Below, in pieces: positions 4,386-63,991 of a stretch of DNA of 64,000 nt. How positions within the stretch are numbered: the first letter of the stretch is position 1; each line of letters opens with the position of its first letter. The notes under the pieces are model-generated. The model was not told the DNA's origin. It did no database searches and worked only from the letters and a program-made list of their open reading frames with translations. The stretch is from Escherichia phage vB_EcoM-RPN187. The DNA lies in sequence record OL770074.2; one strand, 5' to 3'. Both the position numbers and the translations under genes were made by a program.

Positions 4386-5954
4386 ATGACTACTATCAAA
4401 ACTAAAGCTCAGCTCGTAGACAAATGGAAAGAACTGCTGGAAGGTGAAGGCCTGCCGGAAATCGCTAATAGCAAGCAGGCTATTATCGCTAAAATCTTCG
4501 AAAACCAGGAAAAAGATTTCGAAGTATCCCCTGAATATAAAGACGAGAAAATCGCTCAGGCATTTGGTTCTTTCTTGACCGAAGCTGAAATTGGTGGTGA
4601 CCATGGTTATAATGCTCAGAACATCGCAGCAGGTCAAACCTCTGGTGCAGTAACCCAAATTGGGCCAGCAGTTATGGGTATGGTTCGTCGTGCTATTCCT
4701 AATCTGATCGCTTTTGATATTTGTGGTGTTCAGCCTATGAACAGCCCGACCGGTCAGGTATTTGCTCTCCGTGCAGTATATGGTAAAGACCCTATCGCTG
4801 CTGGCGCTAAAGAAGCTTTCCATCCGATGTATGCCCCGGACGCGATGTTCTCTGGTCAGGGTGCTGCTAAGAAATTCCCAGCTCTGGCTGCTGACACTAC
4901 TACTGTTGTAGGTGATATCTATACTCACTTCTTCCAAGAAACTGGTACCGTATATCTGCAAGCTTCTGCTATCGTAACACTTGATTCTAGTGCGACTGAT
5001 GCTGCTAAATTAGATGCAGAAGTTAAGAAACAAATGGAAGCTGGTGCACTGGTAGAAATCGCTGAAGGTATGGCTACTTCTATCGCTGAACTCCAGGAAG
5101 GTTTCAACGGTTCTACCGACAACCCATGGAACGAAATGGGCTTCCGTATCGATAAACAAGTTATCGAAGCTAAATCTCGTCAGCTGAAAGCAGCTTACTC
5201 CATCGAATTAGCACAAGACCTCCGTGCAGTACACGGTATGGATGCTGATGCTGAACTGAGCGGTATTCTTGCTACTGAAATTATGCTAGAAATCAACCGT
5301 GAAGTTGTTGATTGGATTAACTACTCAGCACAGGTTGGTAAATCTGGTATGACCCTGACTCCGGGTTCTAAAGCCGGTGTATTTGACTTCCAGGACCCGA
5401 TTGATATCCGTGGTGCTCGTTGGGCCGGTGAAAGCTTTAAATCTCTGTTGTTCCAGATTGATAAAGAAGCAGTTGAAATTGCTCGTCAAACCGGTCGTGG
5501 TGAAGGTAACTTCATTATCGCTTCCCGTAACGTAGTTAACGTACTGGCTTCAGTTGATACTGGTATTTCTTACGCTGCACAGGGTCTGGCTTCTGGTTTT
5601 AATACCGACACTACTAAGTCTGTATTTGCCGGTGTACTTGGTGGTAAATACCGCGTATACATCGACCAGTATGCTAAACAGGATTACTTCACCGTTGGTT
5701 ACAAAGGCGCTAACGAAATGGATGCAGGTATTTACTATGCTCCTTACGTTGCACTTACCCCACTGCGTGGTTCCGATCCTAAGAACTTCCAGCCGGTAAT
5801 GGGCTTTAAAACTCGTTACGGTATCGGTGTTAACCCGTTTGCTGAAAGTTCCCTGCAGGCTCCAGGTGCTCGCATCCAGTCCGGTATGCCGTCTATCCTG
5901 AACAGCCTTGGTAAGAACGCTTACTTCCGCCGTGTATATGTAAAAGGCATCTAA
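4386..5954 (+). CDS. 23: major capsid protein gp23
   Basis: 522-aa ORF (T4 gp23 521 aa), very high codon bias, strong SD; T4 synteny. Confidence 0.97.
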   Translation: MTTIKTKAQLVDKWKELLEGEGLPEIANSKQAIIAKIFENQEKDFEVSPEYKDEKIAQAFGSFLTEAEIGGDHGYNAQNIAAGQTSGAVTQIGPAVMGMVRRAIPNLIAFDICGVQPMNSPTGQVFALRAVYGKDPIAAGAKEAFHPMYAPDAMFSGQGAAKKFPALAADTTTVVGDIYTHFFQETGTVYLQASAIVTLDSSATDAAKLDAEVKKQMEAGALVEIAEGMATSIAELQEGFNGSTDNPWNEMGFRIDKQVIEAKSRQLKAAYSIELAQDLRAVHGMDADAELSGILATEIMLEINREVVDWINYSAQVGKSGMTLTPGSKAGVFDFQDPIDIRGARWAGESFKSLLFQIDKEAVEIARQTGRGEGNFIIASRNVVNVLASVDTGISYAAQGLASGFNTDTTKSVFAGVLGGKYRVYIDQYAKQDYFTVGYKGANEMDAGIYYAPYVALTPLRGSDPKNFQPVMGFKTRYGIGVNPFAESSLQAPGARIQSGMPSILNSLGKNAYFRRVYVKGI

Positions 5955-58386: not shown

Positions 58387-59019
58387 TCACAGTACGTTAG
58401 TTACAAGGGTAATGATTTCTTTGGATACATTAGGGAAGTCAATGTAAGTATATTTACCACCGATCTTAATCTTAACATCGTTTTCAAGAGAAGTAAACAG
58501 TTTTGATTCAGTTTCTGACATGTTGTATGCAAATATTCTAAGACAACCATCTCGACGAATTTCAATCTGACGAATACCTAGAACTCGTTTTGCAAATCGA
58601 ACTTCCAAGTTACTACGGTTTTCACCAATTTCTTTAACTTCAACTTTATCTTTAATATTTTCAAAAACAAAGTTTGCTAATTCATGCATTTCGGGAGTAA
58701 CTCCACGTGCTTTTCTAGTGTTACGTTTCTGAAGAAGTTCTGGAGCATTTTCTTGGGCAAAGAGGTCTGCAGCTTTTTGGATAATATCCATTGCTTCGCC
58801 TGTTGCTATAAGTCCATCACCGGATTTTTCGACTAAACCTTTCTTAATCAATACACCAATGTTAGAGTTAACAACCGATGCATTGTATTCCGCTTCCAGA
58901 GCTTCACGGACATTGGCAGCAGTGGTGAAGTTGTTCTTAATGATATAAACCATTATTGCAGCAGTTTTTTCATTCAGAGCGTTTTCAGAAGCTTTGATGA
59001 TGTAAGCAACTTTAGACAT
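58387..59019 (-). CDS. motA: MotA middle-transcription activator
   Basis: 210-aa ORF; N-terminus MSKV.YIIKAS...LNEKTA and VLIKKGLVEKSGDGLI match recalled T4 MotA. Confidence 0.9.
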   Translation of the reverse strand: MSKVAYIIKASENALNEKTAAIMVYIIKNNFTTAANVREALEAEYNASVVNSNIGVLIKKGLVEKSGDGLIATGEAMDIIQKAADLFAQENAPELLQKRNTRKARGVTPEMHELANFVFENIKDKVEVKEIGENRSNLEVRFAKRVLGIRQIEIRRDGCLRIFAYNMSETESKLFTSLENDVKIKIGGKYTYIDFPNVSKEIITLVTNVL

Positions 59020-59058
59020 TTTATTTCTCCAATTTGGTTGTTTTGTTTTGATAGGTCT

Positions 59059-59087
59059 ATAATATCATGTTTGAAGCACATGTAAAC
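59059..59087 (-). promoter_or_regulatory. T4 early-type promoter for motA
   Basis: minus GTTTAC-N17-TATTAT. Confidence 0.5.
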
Positions 59088-59114
59088 TGTTTTGTGAGAA
59101 AAAATGCACAAAAA

Positions 59115-59128
59115 GGAGCCGAAGCTCC
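59115..59128 (-). terminator. UUCG-tetraloop hairpin downstream of gene 52
   Basis: GGAGC-CGAAG-CTCC, followed on minus by T5. Confidence 0.6.
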
Positions 59129-59205
59129 CTAATCATGTTTGTCCAACCAATACAGCCAAATCACTAGTGCAGCTATTGCACCGAGAAATCCCAAGGCTAG
59201 GGCAC

Positions 59206-60531
59206 TCAAAGTGCCTCCAAGTCTTTAGTGTACTCTGTCACAACATCAGTAGACTTCCAATACTCATTTTCTTCTTTCTTAGCTTTAGCTTCTTCTGCTA
59301 GTTTACGTGCTTCGTCAGAAGTGATATGGAAGATGTTAAGACCTACCAGTTTATCGACATGTTCTTTGTACATTTCGATTTGTGTTAGCTCTTCAGTCAA
59401 AGCTTTACGAGTCTTGCCTTGAATCACAATTTCACCGTTGATAACTTTTTTGATGAAGTGTGCCTTAGCAAAAGCAAGTTTAAATGCTTTTTCAGATTCA
59501 AGGATTTTGTTATCAATACGTTTCTGAACGTAAGTCTTACGGACTTCAACAAAATCTTTGATTAAGTCCACTACGTTATCGTAGACCGCTAATTTACCCT
59601 TTTCATTAATCACTGTGATGTTTTGTGAACGACGTTCGATGAGACTAAAATCTTTCATGATTTTTTCATGACGTAGCTCTTCATCATCAGGAAGCGAGTA
59701 CTCTTTACGGAACTTCACCTTAAACCCAAAGCCGTGTTCACCACAATCGTCTTCCCATGAGATTAGACCTTTGTCTTCCAATGGGTCAAGAACCTTACTC
59801 ACATACGTTTCACGGTCGAATTTATATGGGATTTCAGTTATCTGCATTTGAGTGCGAGATGTGAACTTATACGTTCCGTGAATCTCATAACGCCCATCAA
59901 CTTCATGTACTTCACCACGGAATTCCGGGAATTCAACTTTTGGCTTAGTGACATTTTTACCTTGAAGAGCTTGTAATACAGCCTTTTTGACTGATTTAAA
60001 ACTATGAGGCAGAATATTTGTTGCGTAACCGGTTGCAATACCAGATACGCCGTTCAAAAGAACTGTCGGAATAATAGGAAGATAGAATTTTGGTGGAATG
60101 TGTTCTTTATCTTCATGAGCTGGAGCATATTCAGTATCTTTATATACGTTATAGAAATTTTTACTTACACGTGCAAAAATATAACGAGATGCTGCAGCTT
60201 TTTGGACTGTTCGAGAACCAAAGTTGCCTTGGCCATCTAACAGTGGATAGTTGTTGTTCCATGTGTTAGCCATCAATGCACCTGCATCTTGTGCAGAAGA
60301 TTCACCATGGTGATAACCTAAATCTGCAACACCGCCTGCAATTGACGCAAGTTTATGAAATTTTTCTTTATTACCACGAGCCAAATCTAACGCACGATGA
60401 ACCACAAAACGTTGAACCGGCTTAAATCCATCAATCATGTTTGGGATTGCACGGTTTTCAACGGTGTACATCGCATATGCTAAGGCTTCGTTATCAATAA
60501 TACTTTTTAGATTACGAGAATTCAATTCCAT
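59206..60531 (-). CDS. 52: DNA topoisomerase II medium subunit gp52
   Basis: 441-aa ORF (T4 gp52 442 aa); GyrA-like N-terminal region. Confidence 0.93.
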   Translation of the reverse strand: MELNSRNLKSIIDNEALAYAMYTVENRAIPNMIDGFKPVQRFVVHRALDLARGNKEKFHKLASIAGGVADLGYHHGESSAQDAGALMANTWNNNYPLLDGQGNFGSRTVQKAAASRYIFARVSKNFYNVYKDTEYAPAHEDKEHIPPKFYLPIIPTVLLNGVSGIATGYATNILPHSFKSVKKAVLQALQGKNVTKPKVEFPEFRGEVHEVDGRYEIHGTYKFTSRTQMQITEIPYKFDRETYVSKVLDPLEDKGLISWEDDCGEHGFGFKVKFRKEYSLPDDEELRHEKIMKDFSLIERRSQNITVINEKGKLAVYDNVVDLIKDFVEVRKTYVQKRIDNKILESEKAFKLAFAKAHFIKKVINGEIVIQGKTRKALTEELTQIEMYKEHVDKLVGLNIFHITSDEARKLAEEAKAKKEENEYWKSTDVVTEYTKDLEAL

Positions 60532-60677
60532 AATTTTACCATACTAGTGAATGGAATAGCCATAATAACATCGGAAATAAAAAGCACAACTTGAATTATC
60601 CCGAACATTACTCCATAATACAGCGCTACCAATAAAGCAGCAAGGGCTAACGAGTAGCCCAAGATTTTATTAATCAT
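60522..60677 (-). CDS. small membrane protein (52.1/ac region)
   Basis: 51 aa from MINKILGYSLALAALLVALYYG; two hydrophobic helices. Confidence 0.45.
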   Translation of the reverse strand: MINKILGYSLALAALLVALYYGVMFGIIQVVLFISDVIMAIPFTSMVKLWN

Positions 60678-60831
60678 TTTTAATCGTCTTAAGTAAACCG
60701 ACAAAAGTAGAAAGAACCCAACCAATAAGCAGAAAACTTAAGAATATCGGACCAGGGGCCCACACACCTAAAAAGAAGCAAACCGAACAGACTATAGCCG
60801 TAATAAGTTCAATAAAAACTACGATAATCAT
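60670..60831 (-). CDS. small membrane protein (52.1/ac region)
   Basis: 53-aa ORF MIIVVFIELITAIVCSVCFFLGVW... with SD GAGGAAAAT; stop overlaps next start; below ORF-track threshold. Confidence 0.4.
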   Translation of the reverse strand: MIIVVFIELITAIVCSVCFFLGVWAPGPIFLSFLLIGWVLSTFVGLLKTIKND

Positions 60832-60844
60832 ATTTTCCTCATTA

Positions 60845-60858
60845 GCGTCCGAAGACGC
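60845..60858 (-). other. UUCG-tetraloop hairpin
   Basis: GCGTC-CGAA-GACGC. Confidence 0.4.
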
Positions 60859-60918
60859 CTTTAGTTTTAAGATTGTTACGATAGAACTGCATCACATGTT
60901 CGTTATGGAAATTACTCA

Positions 60919-61365
60919 TTAGTAAGCCTGCAGGATGAATTTAAAGTTATCAGCCAACATACGGTTCATTTCTTCCAGAGTCTGGAAGTCGGAACTATGA
61001 TTGCGAGTGAATGCCAGAGCCAATTGTCCTTTACCATAACCAGTGGTCAGTGGTTTCATGTTCTTAGCTGCAACAAAGATTACATCATATTCGATATTGT
61101 TAGTGCCCATGGTACGGGCTAGTTGCGAACGGCCTTGACGAATGTGAGAAAGAATTGCATCCAACCCTTGTTTAGAACGTTGACGTCCTACAAAGAATCG
61201 TGCTGCTACTTGGCGCCAATCAGATGAACCTTTAACAAAGAAGTAAAAACCTTCACGAGAACGAAACTCTTTAGAAACTTCAGAACCGTATTCGCCATTA
61301 CGAACTACTGCAACAACTTCACCACCAACTGCCAGAAGGTCTTTACGAGTTAAATATTTGGACAT
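60919..61365 (-). CDS. ndd: Ndd nucleoid disruption protein
   Basis: 148-aa ORF; C-terminal half near-identical to recalled T4 Ndd (RFYVGNQRSKQG...LADNFKF.LQAY). Confidence 0.9.
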
Positions 61366-61409
61366 GCTAATTTCCTCAATTGATTAATGTTTTTGTAATC
61401 CATGAGAGC

Positions 61410-61439
61410 ATTATACTCTGCTCTCAAGAGTTTGTACAA
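61410..61439 (-). promoter_or_regulatory. early-type promoter for ndd, -10 TATAAT inside inverted repeat
   Basis: minus TTGTAC-N18-TATAAT; IR gagagca/tgctctc; paralogous to promoter at 33809-33838. Confidence 0.5.
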
Positions 61440-61441
61440 TT

Positions 61442-61642
61442 TTATTCGGTTATATCAGAACGTTCAAAAAGCTCTTCGACAGTTAAACATTCGGTGTCAT
61501 CCTCAATAAAGAATCGGGTCCAACACGTCGGGGCGATGCAGTTATGAGTTTGTCCGGCTATAGAAGCTACACGAATAAGCTGTTGACCATTATTCAGGAC
61601 AAATTTTTCACCAATTTCAACATCTTTAAAAAGCTTAGCCAT
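61442..61642 (-). CDS. hypothetical protein
   Basis: 66-aa ORF with Cys/His pattern (HNCIAPTCW...C). Confidence 0.5.
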   Translation of the reverse strand: MAKLFKDVEIGEKFVLNNGQQLIRVASIAGQTHNCIAPTCWTRFFIEDDTECLTVEELFERSDITE

Positions 61643-61670
61643 TTTGTATTCCTCATGTTTTGATAGGACT

Positions 61671-61700
61671 ACTATACCATAATCCTACCTTGATGTAAAC
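61671..61700 (-). promoter_or_regulatory. T4 early-type promoter
   Basis: minus GTTTAC-N18-TATAGT. Confidence 0.5.
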
Positions 61701-61702
61701 AA

Positions 61703-61727
61703 TTAAATTACATTAAATTACATTAAA
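61703..61727. repeat. short tandem direct repeat (AAATTACATT x2.5)
   Basis: aattaaattacattaaattacattaaaat. Confidence 0.6.
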
Positions 61728-61823
61728 ATATGTTAAAGCCAACCATGTTCCGGTGAACGAACATGCGATGTAAAAACCTGTATCGCAAATTGTTCTTAGT
61801 ACAATAATAAGTGCATTTTTCAT
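61713..61823 (-). CDS. candidate small hydrophobic peptide
   Basis: 36-aa ORF MKNALIIVLRTICDTGFYIACSFTGTWLALTYFNVI; ATGA-coupled to upstream peptide ORF. Confidence 0.3.
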   Translation of the reverse strand: MKNALIIVLRTICDTGFYIACSFTGTWLALTYFNVI

Positions 61824-61906
61824 AAGTACCTCAATGCAATTGAAAATATTATACAAATCATAGGGATACTAAGCAACCATATTCCGATCCACGTTTTAGA
61901 GCTCAT
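61820..61906 (-). CDS. candidate small hydrophobic peptide
   Basis: 28-aa ORF MSSKTWIGIWLLSIPMICIIFSIALRYL; ATGA-coupled to ORF 61903..62166. Confidence 0.3.
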   Translation of the reverse strand: MSSKTWIGIWLLSIPMICIIFSIALRYL

Positions 61907-62166
61907 ATCTCAACTTCCGCGAGTTCCATATATCCTTTGTTGATAACCTCTTTAAGGTCTTTAGAAAGAATAACACTAAAATGGTCGTTCATATGTCCAT
62001 TAACCAGACGAGTTATTTCGGCTTCAGATGACATATAAGGCACGTCTGAGTCCCAATGAGATAGACCCAAATGGGTATAAATCATCCCTTCGTCATCTGC
62101 GGTGTTGTACATTGAAACAAATTCACCTGTTACTTTATGTTTTGCGTAGAAAAATTTAAATTTCAT
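61903..62166 (-). CDS. hypothetical protein
   Basis: 87-aa ORF with early promoter upstream. Confidence 0.5.
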   Translation of the reverse strand: MKFKFFYAKHKVTGEFVSMYNTADDEGMIYTHLGLSHWDSDVPYMSSEAEITRLVNGHMNDHFSVILSKDLKEVINKGYMELAEVEI

Positions 62167-62191
62167 GATGTTATCCTCTTTTAGATAGGAC

Positions 62192-62221
62192 TACTATATC
62201 ATAGTCCTACTTAGTTGTAAA
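62192..62221 (-). promoter_or_regulatory. T4 early-type promoter with -10 inside inverted repeat
   Basis: minus GTTTAC-N18-TATAGT; IR ataggact/agtccta. Confidence 0.5.
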
Positions 62222-62234
62222 CACTTTTATGAAA

Positions 62235-62792
62235 TTAAAGTTGAAGATACCACCCGTTGTAGTTGCTCTTGCGGACGATTTTCTTTAGGTCTTCATGGTC
62301 TCCCACGAACTTTATAGAATAAGAGAAGACGTCAGGTGAGGTTTCTTTGACATCTAATATAATAATGCAATCTGCGACTCGATGGTTCAAGAAGGGCCCT
62401 ATATTGATTCCATTACCACCCGGATAATCACCACTGTATCCTGTGGTGACCGAAATCCATTTAGAATCTATCTGGTGTGTCTTGACTTCTACACGAATTC
62501 CACAGTACTTGGGATGGGCTAACACGTCCCATGCATACGTGTACGGGTCTTCTACGTCTTCAATACCTTTATTAACATATCCGTCTAGCCAATTTGCTAC
62601 TACATACTCTGCAAAGACCGCAACCTTACAACGTCGAACTACGTCTTCTTTTATTTGACCTGGATCTTGTTTCAACGAGTACCGAGCAGTGTCAGCAATC
62701 TTCACCTTCATTTCACTAGTCAAAAACTCATTCGACAGGATAAATGTCGGAAGATTCTTCAGTCTCAACAGTCCCAAGTTCGTCTTTACCAT
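62235..62792 (-). CDS. denB: endonuclease IV (DenB), tentative
   Basis: 185 aa from MVKTNLGL (SD GAGG); T4 DenB is 185 aa and adjacent to rIIB; no motif confirmation. Confidence 0.6.
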   Translation of the reverse strand: MVKTNLGLLRLKNLPTFILSNEFLTSEMKVKIADTARYSLKQDPGQIKEDVVRRCKVAVFAEYVVANWLDGYVNKGIEDVEDPYTYAWDVLAHPKYCGIRVEVKTHQIDSKWISVTTGYSGDYPGGNGINIGPFLNHRVADCIIILDVKETSPDVFSYSIKFVGDHEDLKKIVRKSNYNGWYLQL

Positions 62793-63018
62793 AGATACCT
62801 CTGATGTGTAGTTCGCCAAAATAAATGCGGTCACCTTCTTCAAGATATTCTGCATCTACAGGCGGAATTTCAATAACAACTTCGTCACATTCTAACCAAC
62901 CGTAGTGTGCATCGCCAGGATGTTTTACCAATTTAGCACAATAAACTGATTTGCACTTATGATGACCACGAAGATTAGCAATTTTGGATTCTGATACGTC
63001 AAATGGATGAATCATAAT
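62728..63018 (-). CDS. hypothetical protein (rIIB-denB intergenic ORF)
   Basis: 96 aa from MIHPFDV (SD AGGGGT); overlaps denB start by 65 nt in another frame. Confidence 0.45.
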   Translation of the reverse strand: MMIHPFDVSESKIANLRGHHKCKSVYCAKLVKHPGDAHYGWLECDEVVIEIPPVDAEYLEEGDRIYFGELHIRGIYGKDELGTVETEESSDIYPVE

Positions 63019-63034
63019 TACCCCTAAAGAAAAA

Positions 63035-63050
63035 GGGGACCGAAGTCCCC
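63035..63050 (-). terminator. UUCG-tetraloop terminator after rIIB
   Basis: GGGGAC-CGAAG-TCCCC with T5 on minus strand. Confidence 0.7.
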
Positions 63051-63055
63051 AATTA

Positions 63056-63991
63056 TTATTCTGCAAATAATTCAGTAACGTCTGAAATTACTTCATAACG
63101 ACAAGTACGCATCTTAGCATCACCATAGTCAACTGGGATAGATACAACATCACGCGGATGAACTTTAACCTTAACAACTTTATCTGAGCTAGAACCAAAG
63201 TAACGAATATATGATTTAGCACAAACATGTAGACCACGGGAACAAGTTTGTGTATCATCGTCGTTAACACGAGTACGAGGCATTGAAACAACTTTACCAG
63301 GCGAGTTATCGAATGTGCCGCTATAGCAATCTAAATAGTCTTTACGAACTACTTTCCACGCGTAGAAATGCCCATCTTCAGTGATTTCAATATCGTTTGC
63401 AACCAAGAAGTCAAATAAACGTTGTACAGCTTTTTCGCTTGGGTTTTCTAACAGGTTTTCAAGGAACGGCAGATAGAATTTAAAGTCTTCGCCTTTTTCC
63501 ATGGAATCAATAATACGGTTAACCAGTCCTGAACGAATTTCTATACCTTGATAAAATAAACTACCACCTTCAATAGTAACATTACCGTCAACAAACTTAG
63601 TAATAGCTTTCTTGATGTTAATAAGTTCGACAGCTTTACTAAGGTTTCCTGCGACCAAATTGGCTTTAATTTCTTCAAAATTTGCATGACTTGATGGGGT
63701 CGCATTGTATGCTACGCGTCCTTCAATGATTGAAATAAATTTAGATGACGCGTTCCATACGATTTCTGGACGATGACCTGTAATAATAGGTTCATTATTT
63801 TCTGGGATCTGTTCTTCGTCTTCAAATTCAGCTGCTTTCTCTTCAGCTTTAAAATTCTTGACAATCTTACGAAGAGTATCTGTTGAAATGTCGAAGTAAT
63901 CGGCAATTTCTTTACGGGTCCATTTGCCTGATTTGACCAGGTCGTAAGCTTCTAACTGTTCTTCTTGGGACAAGCATTTGATATTGTACAT
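63056..63991 (-). CDS. rIIB: rIIB membrane-associated rapid-lysis protein
   Basis: 311-aa ORF; C-terminal two-thirds near-identical to recalled T4 rIIB (GGSLFYQ.IE.RSGLV.RI.DSMEKGE.F...). Confidence 0.95.
   Translation of the reverse strand: MYNIKCLSQEEQLEAYDLVKSGKWTRKEIADYFDISTDTLRKIVKNFKAEEKAAEFEDEEQIPENNEPIITGHRPEIVWNASSKFISIIEGRVAYNATPSSHANFEEIKANLVAGNLSKAVELINIKKAITKFVDGNVTIEGGSLFYQGIEIRSGLVNRIIDSMEKGEDFKFYLPFLENLLENPSEKAVQRLFDFLVANDIEITEDGHFYAWKVVRKDYLDCYSGTFDNSPGKVVSMPRTRVNDDDTQTCSRGLHVCAKSYIRYFGSSSDKVVKVKVHPRDVVSIPVDYGDAKMRTCRYEVISDVTELFAE

Follow-up and report, generated by a model that had tools for sequence, protein, structure and literature searches.

Conserved small membrane-protein genes around ndd in the RB69-like phage vB_EcoM-RPN187

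The window analysed here, 64,000 nucleotides (nt) of Escherichia phage vB_EcoM-RPN187 (record OL770074.2), contains around the nucleoid disruption gene ndd a number of very short open reading frames (ORFs), of which those of 51, 53, 28 and 36 amino acids (aa) are strongly hydrophobic, with a grand average of hydropathy (GRAVY) of 1.09-1.77. These mini-ORFs are genuine, conserved genes for small membrane proteins in a T-even phage of the RB69 type, and most of them have been catalogued before. Taken as a whole, the locus is very probably best explained as two strings of genuine accessory genes that are expressed early and whose slots are exchangeable. An earlier note on this DNA had already taken the ORFs to encode short hydrophobic peptides of the accessory kind found in T-even phages, and in this respect it holds; the orientation of one pair, the type of one junction, the suggested link to Ac and the caveat that the shortest ORFs could be chance do not.

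All positions are window coordinates. The window ends with the segment from motA to rIIB (5 kb), in which every gene is on the minus strand (Table 1), and gene names were taken by synteny from the annotated RB69, T4 and JS10 records. The backbone was found by megablast to be RB69-like (Mosigvirus), with approximately 95% identity over 85% of the query in two pieces. An Rfam scan of positions 59000-63200 gave no match at E values up to 1, so that no known RNA gene accounts for the conservation described below.

The ORFs between denB and ndd.1

The 28- and 36-aa ORFs are present at the places previously described, on the minus strand, and two exact 4-nt ATGA overlaps, at 61903-61906 and 61820-61823, join them to each other and to the 87-aa ORF ahead of them. 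The latter was 100% identical to RB69ORF270c (PHROG E = 9.7e-43), carried its own Shine-Dalgarno sequence (AGAGGA) and displayed a ratio of non-synonymous to synonymous polymorphism (pN/pS) of 0.06. It had no Pfam or NCBIfam match, and its sole match in the PDB was non-significant (E = 0.052).

The 28-aa ORF matched phrog_8851 (E = 1.2e-10) over positions 1-28 of 28 and was 50% identical to T4 Ndd.6, which is of equal length. It was found by tblastn at full length (at least 80% coverage) in 718 phage records with a constant length of 84 nt, the identity being approximately 50% in Tequatrovirus; the overall count for this ORF was 735 records. The ORF is flanked by ATGA junctions on both sides, which are kept in Mosigvirus and Tequatrovirus loci, and in a panel of Mosigvirus loci the frame and both junctions were intact in all 18. 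The product is a predicted single-helix membrane peptide homologous to T4 Ndd.6. The label "outer membrane protein" attached to phrog_8851 is an old prediction, and a single hydrophobic helix of 28 aa would better suit an inner-membrane peptide.

The 36-aa ORF belongs to phrog_18561 (E = 2.8e-29) and was present in 152 records, all of them RB69-like, in 146 of which the protein was at least 90% identical; it is a Mosigvirus-specific family. Homology to T4 Ndd.5 or Ndd.4 was considered and rejected, there being no blastp match and an hhalign probability of 0.6% for Ndd.5 (phrog_5011). A GAGG Shine-Dalgarno lies 5 nt upstream of the start and was kept, together with the ATGA junction, in 18/18 loci of the panel, and the frame itself was intact in 15, two of which (moha and SF) had an in-frame codon deletion. 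The panel comprised 18 of the 152 Mosigvirus records, assembled singly and weighted to the most divergent (lowest-identity) matches; a search of IMG/VR with Ndd had yielded three loci only.

Purifying selection was evident in 13 Mosigvirus loci. The pN/pS was 0.08 for the 28-aa ORF, 0.22 for the 36-aa ORF (approximately 1.07 in the other two frames) and 0.08 for ndd.1. Off-frame values were at least 1 for the 87-aa, 28-aa and 36-aa ORFs and for ndd.1, with the exception of one off-frame of the 28-aa ORF (0.23). When the variable codons of the 36-aa ORF were counted by hand, approximately 11 synonymous and 7 conservative non-synonymous events were found (binomial p = 0.0012 relative to a synonymous expectation of 25%).

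The chain of an 87-aa ORF, a 28-aa ORF and a third ORF linked by ATGA and ATGA is kept in T6, pSe_SNUABM_01 and IsaacDaniel. The likeness to T4 Ndd.6/Ndd.5 thus extends to the 28-aa homologue and to the T6-like chain behind the 87-aa ORF, whereas the third ORF is here unrelated to Ndd.5 and T4 has lost most of the 87-aa gene, which T6, pSe_SNUABM_01, IsaacDaniel, RB69 and JS10 possess. The gap between denB and ndd.6 in T4 (positions 4498-4603 of the retrieved locus) retains the last codons of the 87-aa gene (MKIAEIEL) and the ATGA before ndd.6, which fits a need for coupling.

A Dhakavirus-type cassette between ndd and gene 52

The 51- and 53-aa ORFs were likewise found where they had been reported, again on the minus strand. 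They had been described as lying downstream of gene 52 with an ATGA overlap; in the direction of transcription the pair stands 5′ of gene 52, and the overlap is 8 nt long (ATGATTAA, with TAA as the stop codon, at 60670-60677). The same 8-nt junction is used by T4 Ac/52.1 and by all Dhakavirus-type relatives.

The gene stp, which had been missed, sits directly after ndd and ahead of the 53-aa ORF, and its start overlaps the ndd stop codon (TAATG). The product matched PF08133 with 72.1 bits (cut-off 25) and was identical to all 25 residues of JS10 Stp and to residues 1-25 of the 26 of T4 Stp. A C(UUCG)G hairpin at the 3′ end of stp lies just ahead of the Shine-Dalgarno of the 53-aa ORF and was identical in sequence in six relatives. 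The window stp shares with that of T4 the TAATG junction with ndd and differs in its setting, an RB69-like backbone, since the spanning Mosigvirus loci examined are without stp.

This setting is explained by recombination. In a sliding identity comparison the segment containing 52.1, the 53-aa ORF, stp and the 3′ end of ndd (approximately 60525-61000) was 90-100% identical to Dhakavirus JS10, and gene-level averages for the flanking backbone were 97-99% identity to RB69. One breakpoint is at the start codon of gene 52 and the other approximately 90 nt before the ndd stop, the 3′ 90 nt of ndd (60919-61008) being Dhakavirus-like and not RB69-like. The cassette brings stp and the 53-aa gene and replaces the RB69-type ac/52.1 pair; in the seven Mosigvirus loci spanning the region, ac was present, stp was absent and the gap between ndd and ac was approximately 52 nt. 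Hence stp arrived in the RB69-like backbone on a Dhakavirus cassette.

The 51-aa product is gp52.1. It matched PF24129 (DUF7396) with 63.8 bits (cut-off 27), residues 1-41 aligning with profile positions 1-41 of 46, and phrog_3595 (E = 9e-21); the pN/pS was 0.12 in six sequences, against at least 1 off-frame. As in T4 gp52.1, to which residues 1-41 were 93% identical, the gene is located directly 5′ of gene 52, has no Shine-Dalgarno and has its start embedded in the stop region of the ORF upstream, here the 53-aa ORF. The C-terminus differs. Relative to seven relatives, an extra C on the minus strand (G on the plus strand) at 60553/60554 shifts the last codons, so that the canonical ending ...IHSLVW-stop is replaced by ...IPFTSMVKLWN-stop, the last 10 residues are different, the protein has 51 instead of 46 aa and its stop lies 10 nt inside gene 52. 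The canonical form, of 46 aa with a C-terminal H/R-S-L-V/I-W and an end 4 nt before gene 52, was kept in all seven relatives compared and in nearly all database homologues (46 aa; one 47). The aberrant tail is also present in ULA52231.1 of vB_EcoM-RPN187.

The 53-aa protein, identical to ULA52227.1 of vB_EcoM-RPN187, was assigned by the PHROG scan to phrog_9347 and to no other family (E = 3.7e-26). It was detected in 79 phage records, in Dhakavirus, some Tequatrovirus and T4-like phages of Enterobacter, Edwardsiella, Kosakonia, Klebsiella and Erwinia, with identities down to 31%, and its ORF has a strong GAGGA Shine-Dalgarno. AlphaFold2 predicted two helices (residues 2-24 and 28-52) with a break at an APG turn (pLDDT 75.6). 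The earlier description of both members of the pair as two-helix membrane proteins therefore applies to the 53-aa protein; gp52.1 was modelled as one uninterrupted helix, so a two-helix fold is not established for it, although the model, built from one sequence, does not settle the matter.

The earlier note mentioned acridine-resistance (ac) factors. The 53-aa ORF was accordingly considered as the Ac of this phage, be it orthologous to T4 Ac or a functional replacement without homology. The first pair does stand at the T4 ac/52.1 locus and does encode small hydrophobic peptides. Like T4 Ac (PF26944, phrog_2501), the 53-aa protein occupies the slot between stp/ndd and 52.1, overlaps 52.1 by the ATGATTAA junction, ends in ND, has a size of about 50 aa and is predicted to form a two-helix hydrophobic hairpin (Ac is described as two short helices in preprint 10.1101/2025.06.30.662393). 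The copy in AugustSocin (570-731 of the retrieved locus) is even annotated as "acridine resistance protein". The shared C-terminal ND-stop follows of necessity from the overlap with the start codon of 52.1, and no sequence or profile similarity to Ac was detectable: the two proteins belong to separate PHROG families, the Ac of both T4 and RB69 falling in phrog_2501, blastp gave E = 0.32 and hhalign a probability of 0.25%, and the relatives of the 53-aa protein had no precomputed Pfam match whereas those of Ac carry PF26944. REP4 (570-913 of the retrieved locus) contains an Ac-type gene and a 53-aa gene in tandem, from which it follows that they are not alleles of one gene and that position alone does not define the Ac family. 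Nor was an Ac homologue present elsewhere in the 64-kb window, the best tblastn match (E = 0.015, on the opposite strand) being treated as noise. The homology is thus rejected, the AugustSocin label appears to be a positional mis-annotation, and we consider it unlikely that the 53-aa ORF is this phage's Ac in either sense. In REP4 a remnant of the 52.1 start (ATGATTAAGAAATCC) was also seen after the 53-aa ORF.

Beyond gene 52, and outside the interval of the earlier note, a further hydrophobic ORF of 26 aa was observed. It starts with a TTG that overlaps the stop codon of gene 52 (TTGA) and is preceded at 4 nt by GGAGG, and it ends just before a UUCG-tetraloop hairpin. No PHROG family matched it, and a tblastn search with the peptide found no match, probably owing to the low-complexity filter. 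The ORF is not annotated in the RB69 record; it was kept in 9 Mosigvirus loci with approximately 4 synonymous and 2 non-synonymous changes. The same slot is occupied by motA.1 (49 aa) in T4 and by a 34-aa ORF in JS10 and in the Mosigvirus 348Ecol098PP, with ATGA overlaps. The 34-aa ORF that 348Ecol098PP (206-310 of the retrieved locus) has after gene 52 in place of the 26-aa TTG ORF is of Dhakavirus type, making this a second example of small-peptide cassette exchange between Mosigvirus and Dhakavirus.

Promoters, hairpins and the tandem repeat

Four matches to the sigma-70 promoter at 10 of 12 positions were found, all on the minus strand and each ahead of a gene (62221, 61699, 61438 and 59086). 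Two of them, ahead of the 87-aa ORF and of ndd.1, lie in blocks of approximately 45 nt that are near-identical to each other (62180-62221 and 61660-61699) and hold an inverted repeat, TAGGACTA...TAGTCCTA, on either side of the -10 box TATAGT; both have an AT-rich tract upstream and a Shine-Dalgarno with ATG. Hairpins of the C(UUCG)G type were present on the minus strand in stp, after the 26-aa ORF and after rIIB (63035-63050). The latter two each precede a U run and are likely terminators.

Table 1. Features of the ndd region, in order of transcription (window coordinates).
Feature	Position	Strand	Remarks
rIIB	63056-63991	minus	first in transcription order of the segment
ORF272c-like gene, then denB	between rIIB and the 87-aa ORF	minus	
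Predicted early sigma-70-type promoter, TTTACA-17-TATAGT with TG	62193-62221	minus	precedes the 87-aa ORF
87-aa ORF, soluble, RB69ORF270c family, phrog_2390	61903-62166	minus	head of the ATGA chain
28-aa ORF, T4 Ndd.6 homologue, phrog_8851	61820-61906	minus	
36-aa ORF, hydrophobic, phrog_18561	61713-61823	minus	
10-bp tandem repeat	61702-61727		Tandem Repeats Finder
Predicted early promoter for ndd.1, TTTACA-17-TATAGT with TG	61671-61699	minus	
ndd.1 homologue, 66 aa, soluble	61442-61642	minus	98.5% identity to RB69 Ndd.1; phrog_2183
Predicted early promoter for ndd and the following genes, TGTACA-17-TATAAT	61410-61438	minus	
ndd, nucleoid disruption protein, 148 aa	60919-61365	minus	
stp, 25 aa, activator of the host PrrC anticodon nuclease	60842-60919	minus	
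C(UUCG)G tetraloop hairpin in the stp 3′ end	60845-60858	minus	-9.3 kcal/mol, z = -2.4
53-aa protein, predicted two-helix membrane hairpin, phrog_9347	60670-60831	minus	slot of T4 ac
gp52.1 (DUF7396), 51 aa, frameshifted C-terminus	60522-60677	minus	
Recombinant Dhakavirus-type cassette, approximately 480 bp	approximately 60525-61000		sliding identity comparison
Gene 52, topoisomerase II medium subunit	59206-60531	minus	98% identity to RB69; downstream of the chain
26-aa hydrophobic ORF, TTG start	59129-59209	minus	outside the interval of the earlier note
UUCG-tetraloop hairpin, likely terminator of the ndd-to-gene 52 unit	59114-59128	minus	-10.2 kcal/mol, then U run

The locus is a documented region of cassette shuffling. 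An exchange of ndd.4/ndd.5 cassettes between T4 and PST was reported here (PMC4122927, Fig. 6A), and in hyperplastic regions of T4-like genomes promoter/stem-loop elements (PeSLs) are reported to be the points at which cassettes recombine (Comeau 2014, PMC4122927; Arbiol 2010, PMC2839356). As in PeSL cassettes, small ORFs lie between near-identical early-promoter blocks, each with an AT-rich upstream tract and, at its 3′ end, a Shine-Dalgarno and start codon. The resemblance is incomplete in three respects: the -10 box TATAGT has one mismatch to the TAYWAT of the T4/PST early-promoter consensus TTTACW-N17-TAYWAT (PMC4122927), the inverted repeat flanks the -10 box while the published figure legend puts it upstream of the promoter (PMC4122927), and the breakpoints of the 480-bp swap do not coincide with promoter elements, one being within ndd and the other at the start of gene 52. 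We propose that in this hyperplastic region recombination swaps non-homologous, interchangeable cassettes in and out of the slots.

The 10-bp tandem repeat reported next to the 28- and 36-aa ORFs is real (unit ATTAAATTAC, 2.6 copies, 100% matches). It is a duplication of TTTAATGTAA (minus strand) found in the window only (1 of 18 related loci), the 17 relatives having one copy fewer. From the last codons of the 36-aa ORF, where it starts, the repeat runs across the stop codon and through the AT-rich tract that adjoins the -35 box of the ndd.1 promoter on its upstream side; the protein is unchanged and one helical turn of AT-rich DNA is added. KAW3E185 has a 5-bp insertion at the same site, which marks it as a slippage hotspot. 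A hairpin inside the 36-aa ORF (61744-61765, -10.1 kcal/mol) was considered as a terminator and rejected as weak (z = -1.85) and without an adjacent U run.

These features bear on the possibility that what is mainly being conserved in the 36-aa stretch is regulatory DNA of the ndd.1 promoter, an AT-rich tract and stem-loop, with a frame that is incidental or decaying. The coincidence of the last 8 or so codons with the AT-rich tract, the invariance of C-terminal residues 29-36, the internal hairpin, the 10-bp and 5-bp insertions and the loss of the frame in 3 of 18 loci would all agree with such a role. The codon-position bias, however, spans the whole ORF and not just its promoter-proximal end, a good Shine-Dalgarno and the ATGA junction are present in 18/18 loci, and the z-score of the hairpin is unremarkable; coding and regulatory roles can, moreover, coexist. 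A mainly regulatory origin of the conservation is on these grounds very unlikely.

Least probable of all, to the point that it can be set aside, is that the frames of 28 and 36 aa arose by chance in an AT-rich spacer and encode no protein, as the earlier note had allowed. In 5000 dinucleotide shuffles of the 221-nt stretch holding both, one ORF of at least 28 codons arose in 28% and two in 2.2%, and the 28-aa ORF is unannotated in RB69 and several other records, but two such ORFs overlapping by 4 nt arose in 0/5000, and the question is settled by conservation, namely its breadth (the 28-aa length and 50% identity are preserved across genera as T4 ndd.6), the 18/18 and 15/18 intact frames, the in-frame codon-deletion allele of the 36-aa ORF and the clustering of substitutions at third codon positions seen in the low pN/pS of both. 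ATGA overlaps between ORFs numbered 12 on the minus strand versus 3 on the plus strand and are thus typical of the coding strand here.

Proposed expression and function

The two strings of accessory genes may be depicted as follows. In the first, the promoter at 62221-62193 would transcribe the 87-aa ORF, the Ndd.6 homologue and the 36-aa peptide, the start of each of the latter two being embedded in the preceding stop. In the second, the promoter at 61438-61410 would transcribe ndd, stp, the 53-aa ORF, gp52.1 and gene 52, and the unit would end with the 26-aa peptide and the terminator. Each putatively coupled pair has an overlapping junction: ATGA twice in the first string, and TAATG, ATGATTAA and TTGA in the second. 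The Shine-Dalgarno of the 28-aa ORF is weak and badly spaced, and since neither this ORF nor those of gp52.1 and stp have a usable one, the three are most likely translated by termination-reinitiation from the preceding ORF. The 36- and 53-aa ORFs have GAGG, and for them coupling would not be obligatory.

The best-supported interpretation of the products is that they are early, dispensable modulators of host envelope functions in the inner membrane. The peptides, of one or two predicted helices, would become embedded in the inner membrane of the host within the first minutes of infection and probably tune the envelope, whether drug efflux and permeability, as proposed for T4 Ac, or lipid synthesis, exclusion or defence; on laboratory hosts they would be dispensable. 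Background from T4 is consistent with this. T4 Ac sensitises cells to acriflavine, and a block of AcrAB-TolC has been proposed (preprint 10.1101/2025.06.30.662393; cited in PMC13250531). T4 carrying the saDelta9 deletion, from 52.1 to denB, no longer stimulates phospholipid synthesis, and the products of T4 ndd.1-ndd.6 are called unknown in the same review (PMC6071114). By CRISPRi-ART, T4 52.1, ac, stp, ndd and ndd.1-ndd.6 were all scored "Not Fit", with no effect on fitness in the laboratory host (PMC11879866, supplementary file 15).

Bacteria have inner-membrane regulators of the AcrZ kind, up to approximately 50 aa long and with one or two helices, which bind larger membrane machines. The phage peptides have no homology to them, and the comparison serves as a working analogy only. 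A more specific, speculative idea is one that we hold tentatively and think unlikely: the slots 5′ of 52.1, after ndd.6 and after gene 52 may be docking sites for interchangeable, non-homologous tiny membrane proteins that use the same overlapping junction and each inhibit a different envelope machine, and the 53-aa hairpin may functionally replace Ac, for instance at an efflux pump or another inner-membrane complex.

Several points weigh against the interpretation of these ORFs as functional, early-expressed membrane-protein genes. Frame-disrupting indels in close relatives, which had been named beforehand as a reason to doubt the ORFs, do not occur in the 28-aa ORF of the 18 loci and were found marginally in the 36-aa ORF, whose frame is broken in KAW3E185, PECP20 and F2 by one-base homopolymer indels. 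The 36-aa gene may accordingly be dispensable or partly decaying; the indels could also be homopolymer sequencing errors, and because the panel was chosen partly from the lowest-identity matches, 3/18 overstates the rate of frame loss. For the 53-aa ORF, pN/pS was 0.31 in frame versus 0.46 and 1.12 off-frame in six sequences only, and with the first of these off-frame values so close to the in-frame one the test is not discriminating. The frameshift in gp52.1 may mean that its product is impaired, may be a sequencing error or may be a real variant. Translation and coupling of the ORFs are deduced from their sequences, and any host target of the four peptides is hypothetical.

The interest of the finding is low, since earlier work has documented not only these genes, with their families, short lengths and hydrophobic character, but also how plastic the locus is. 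What the present analysis adds is a corrected strand and direction of the 51/53-aa pair relative to gene 52, a corrected overlap type and a flag on gp52.1 of the source genome, which has a probable frameshift or sequencing error. In many RB69-like genomes the annotation omits the Ndd.6 homologue and the 26-aa ORF that follows gene 52, and where members of the 53-aa family are labelled "acridine resistance protein" the name is a mis-annotation derived from position. For the biology of these phages, the natural swap of ac/52.1 for stp, the 53-aa ORF and 52.1 is a ready-made comparison for the function of the peptides: if the 53-aa hairpin does stand in for Ac, a phage in which it has taken the place of Ac, such as this one, would show altered sensitivity to acridines or other drugs during infection.

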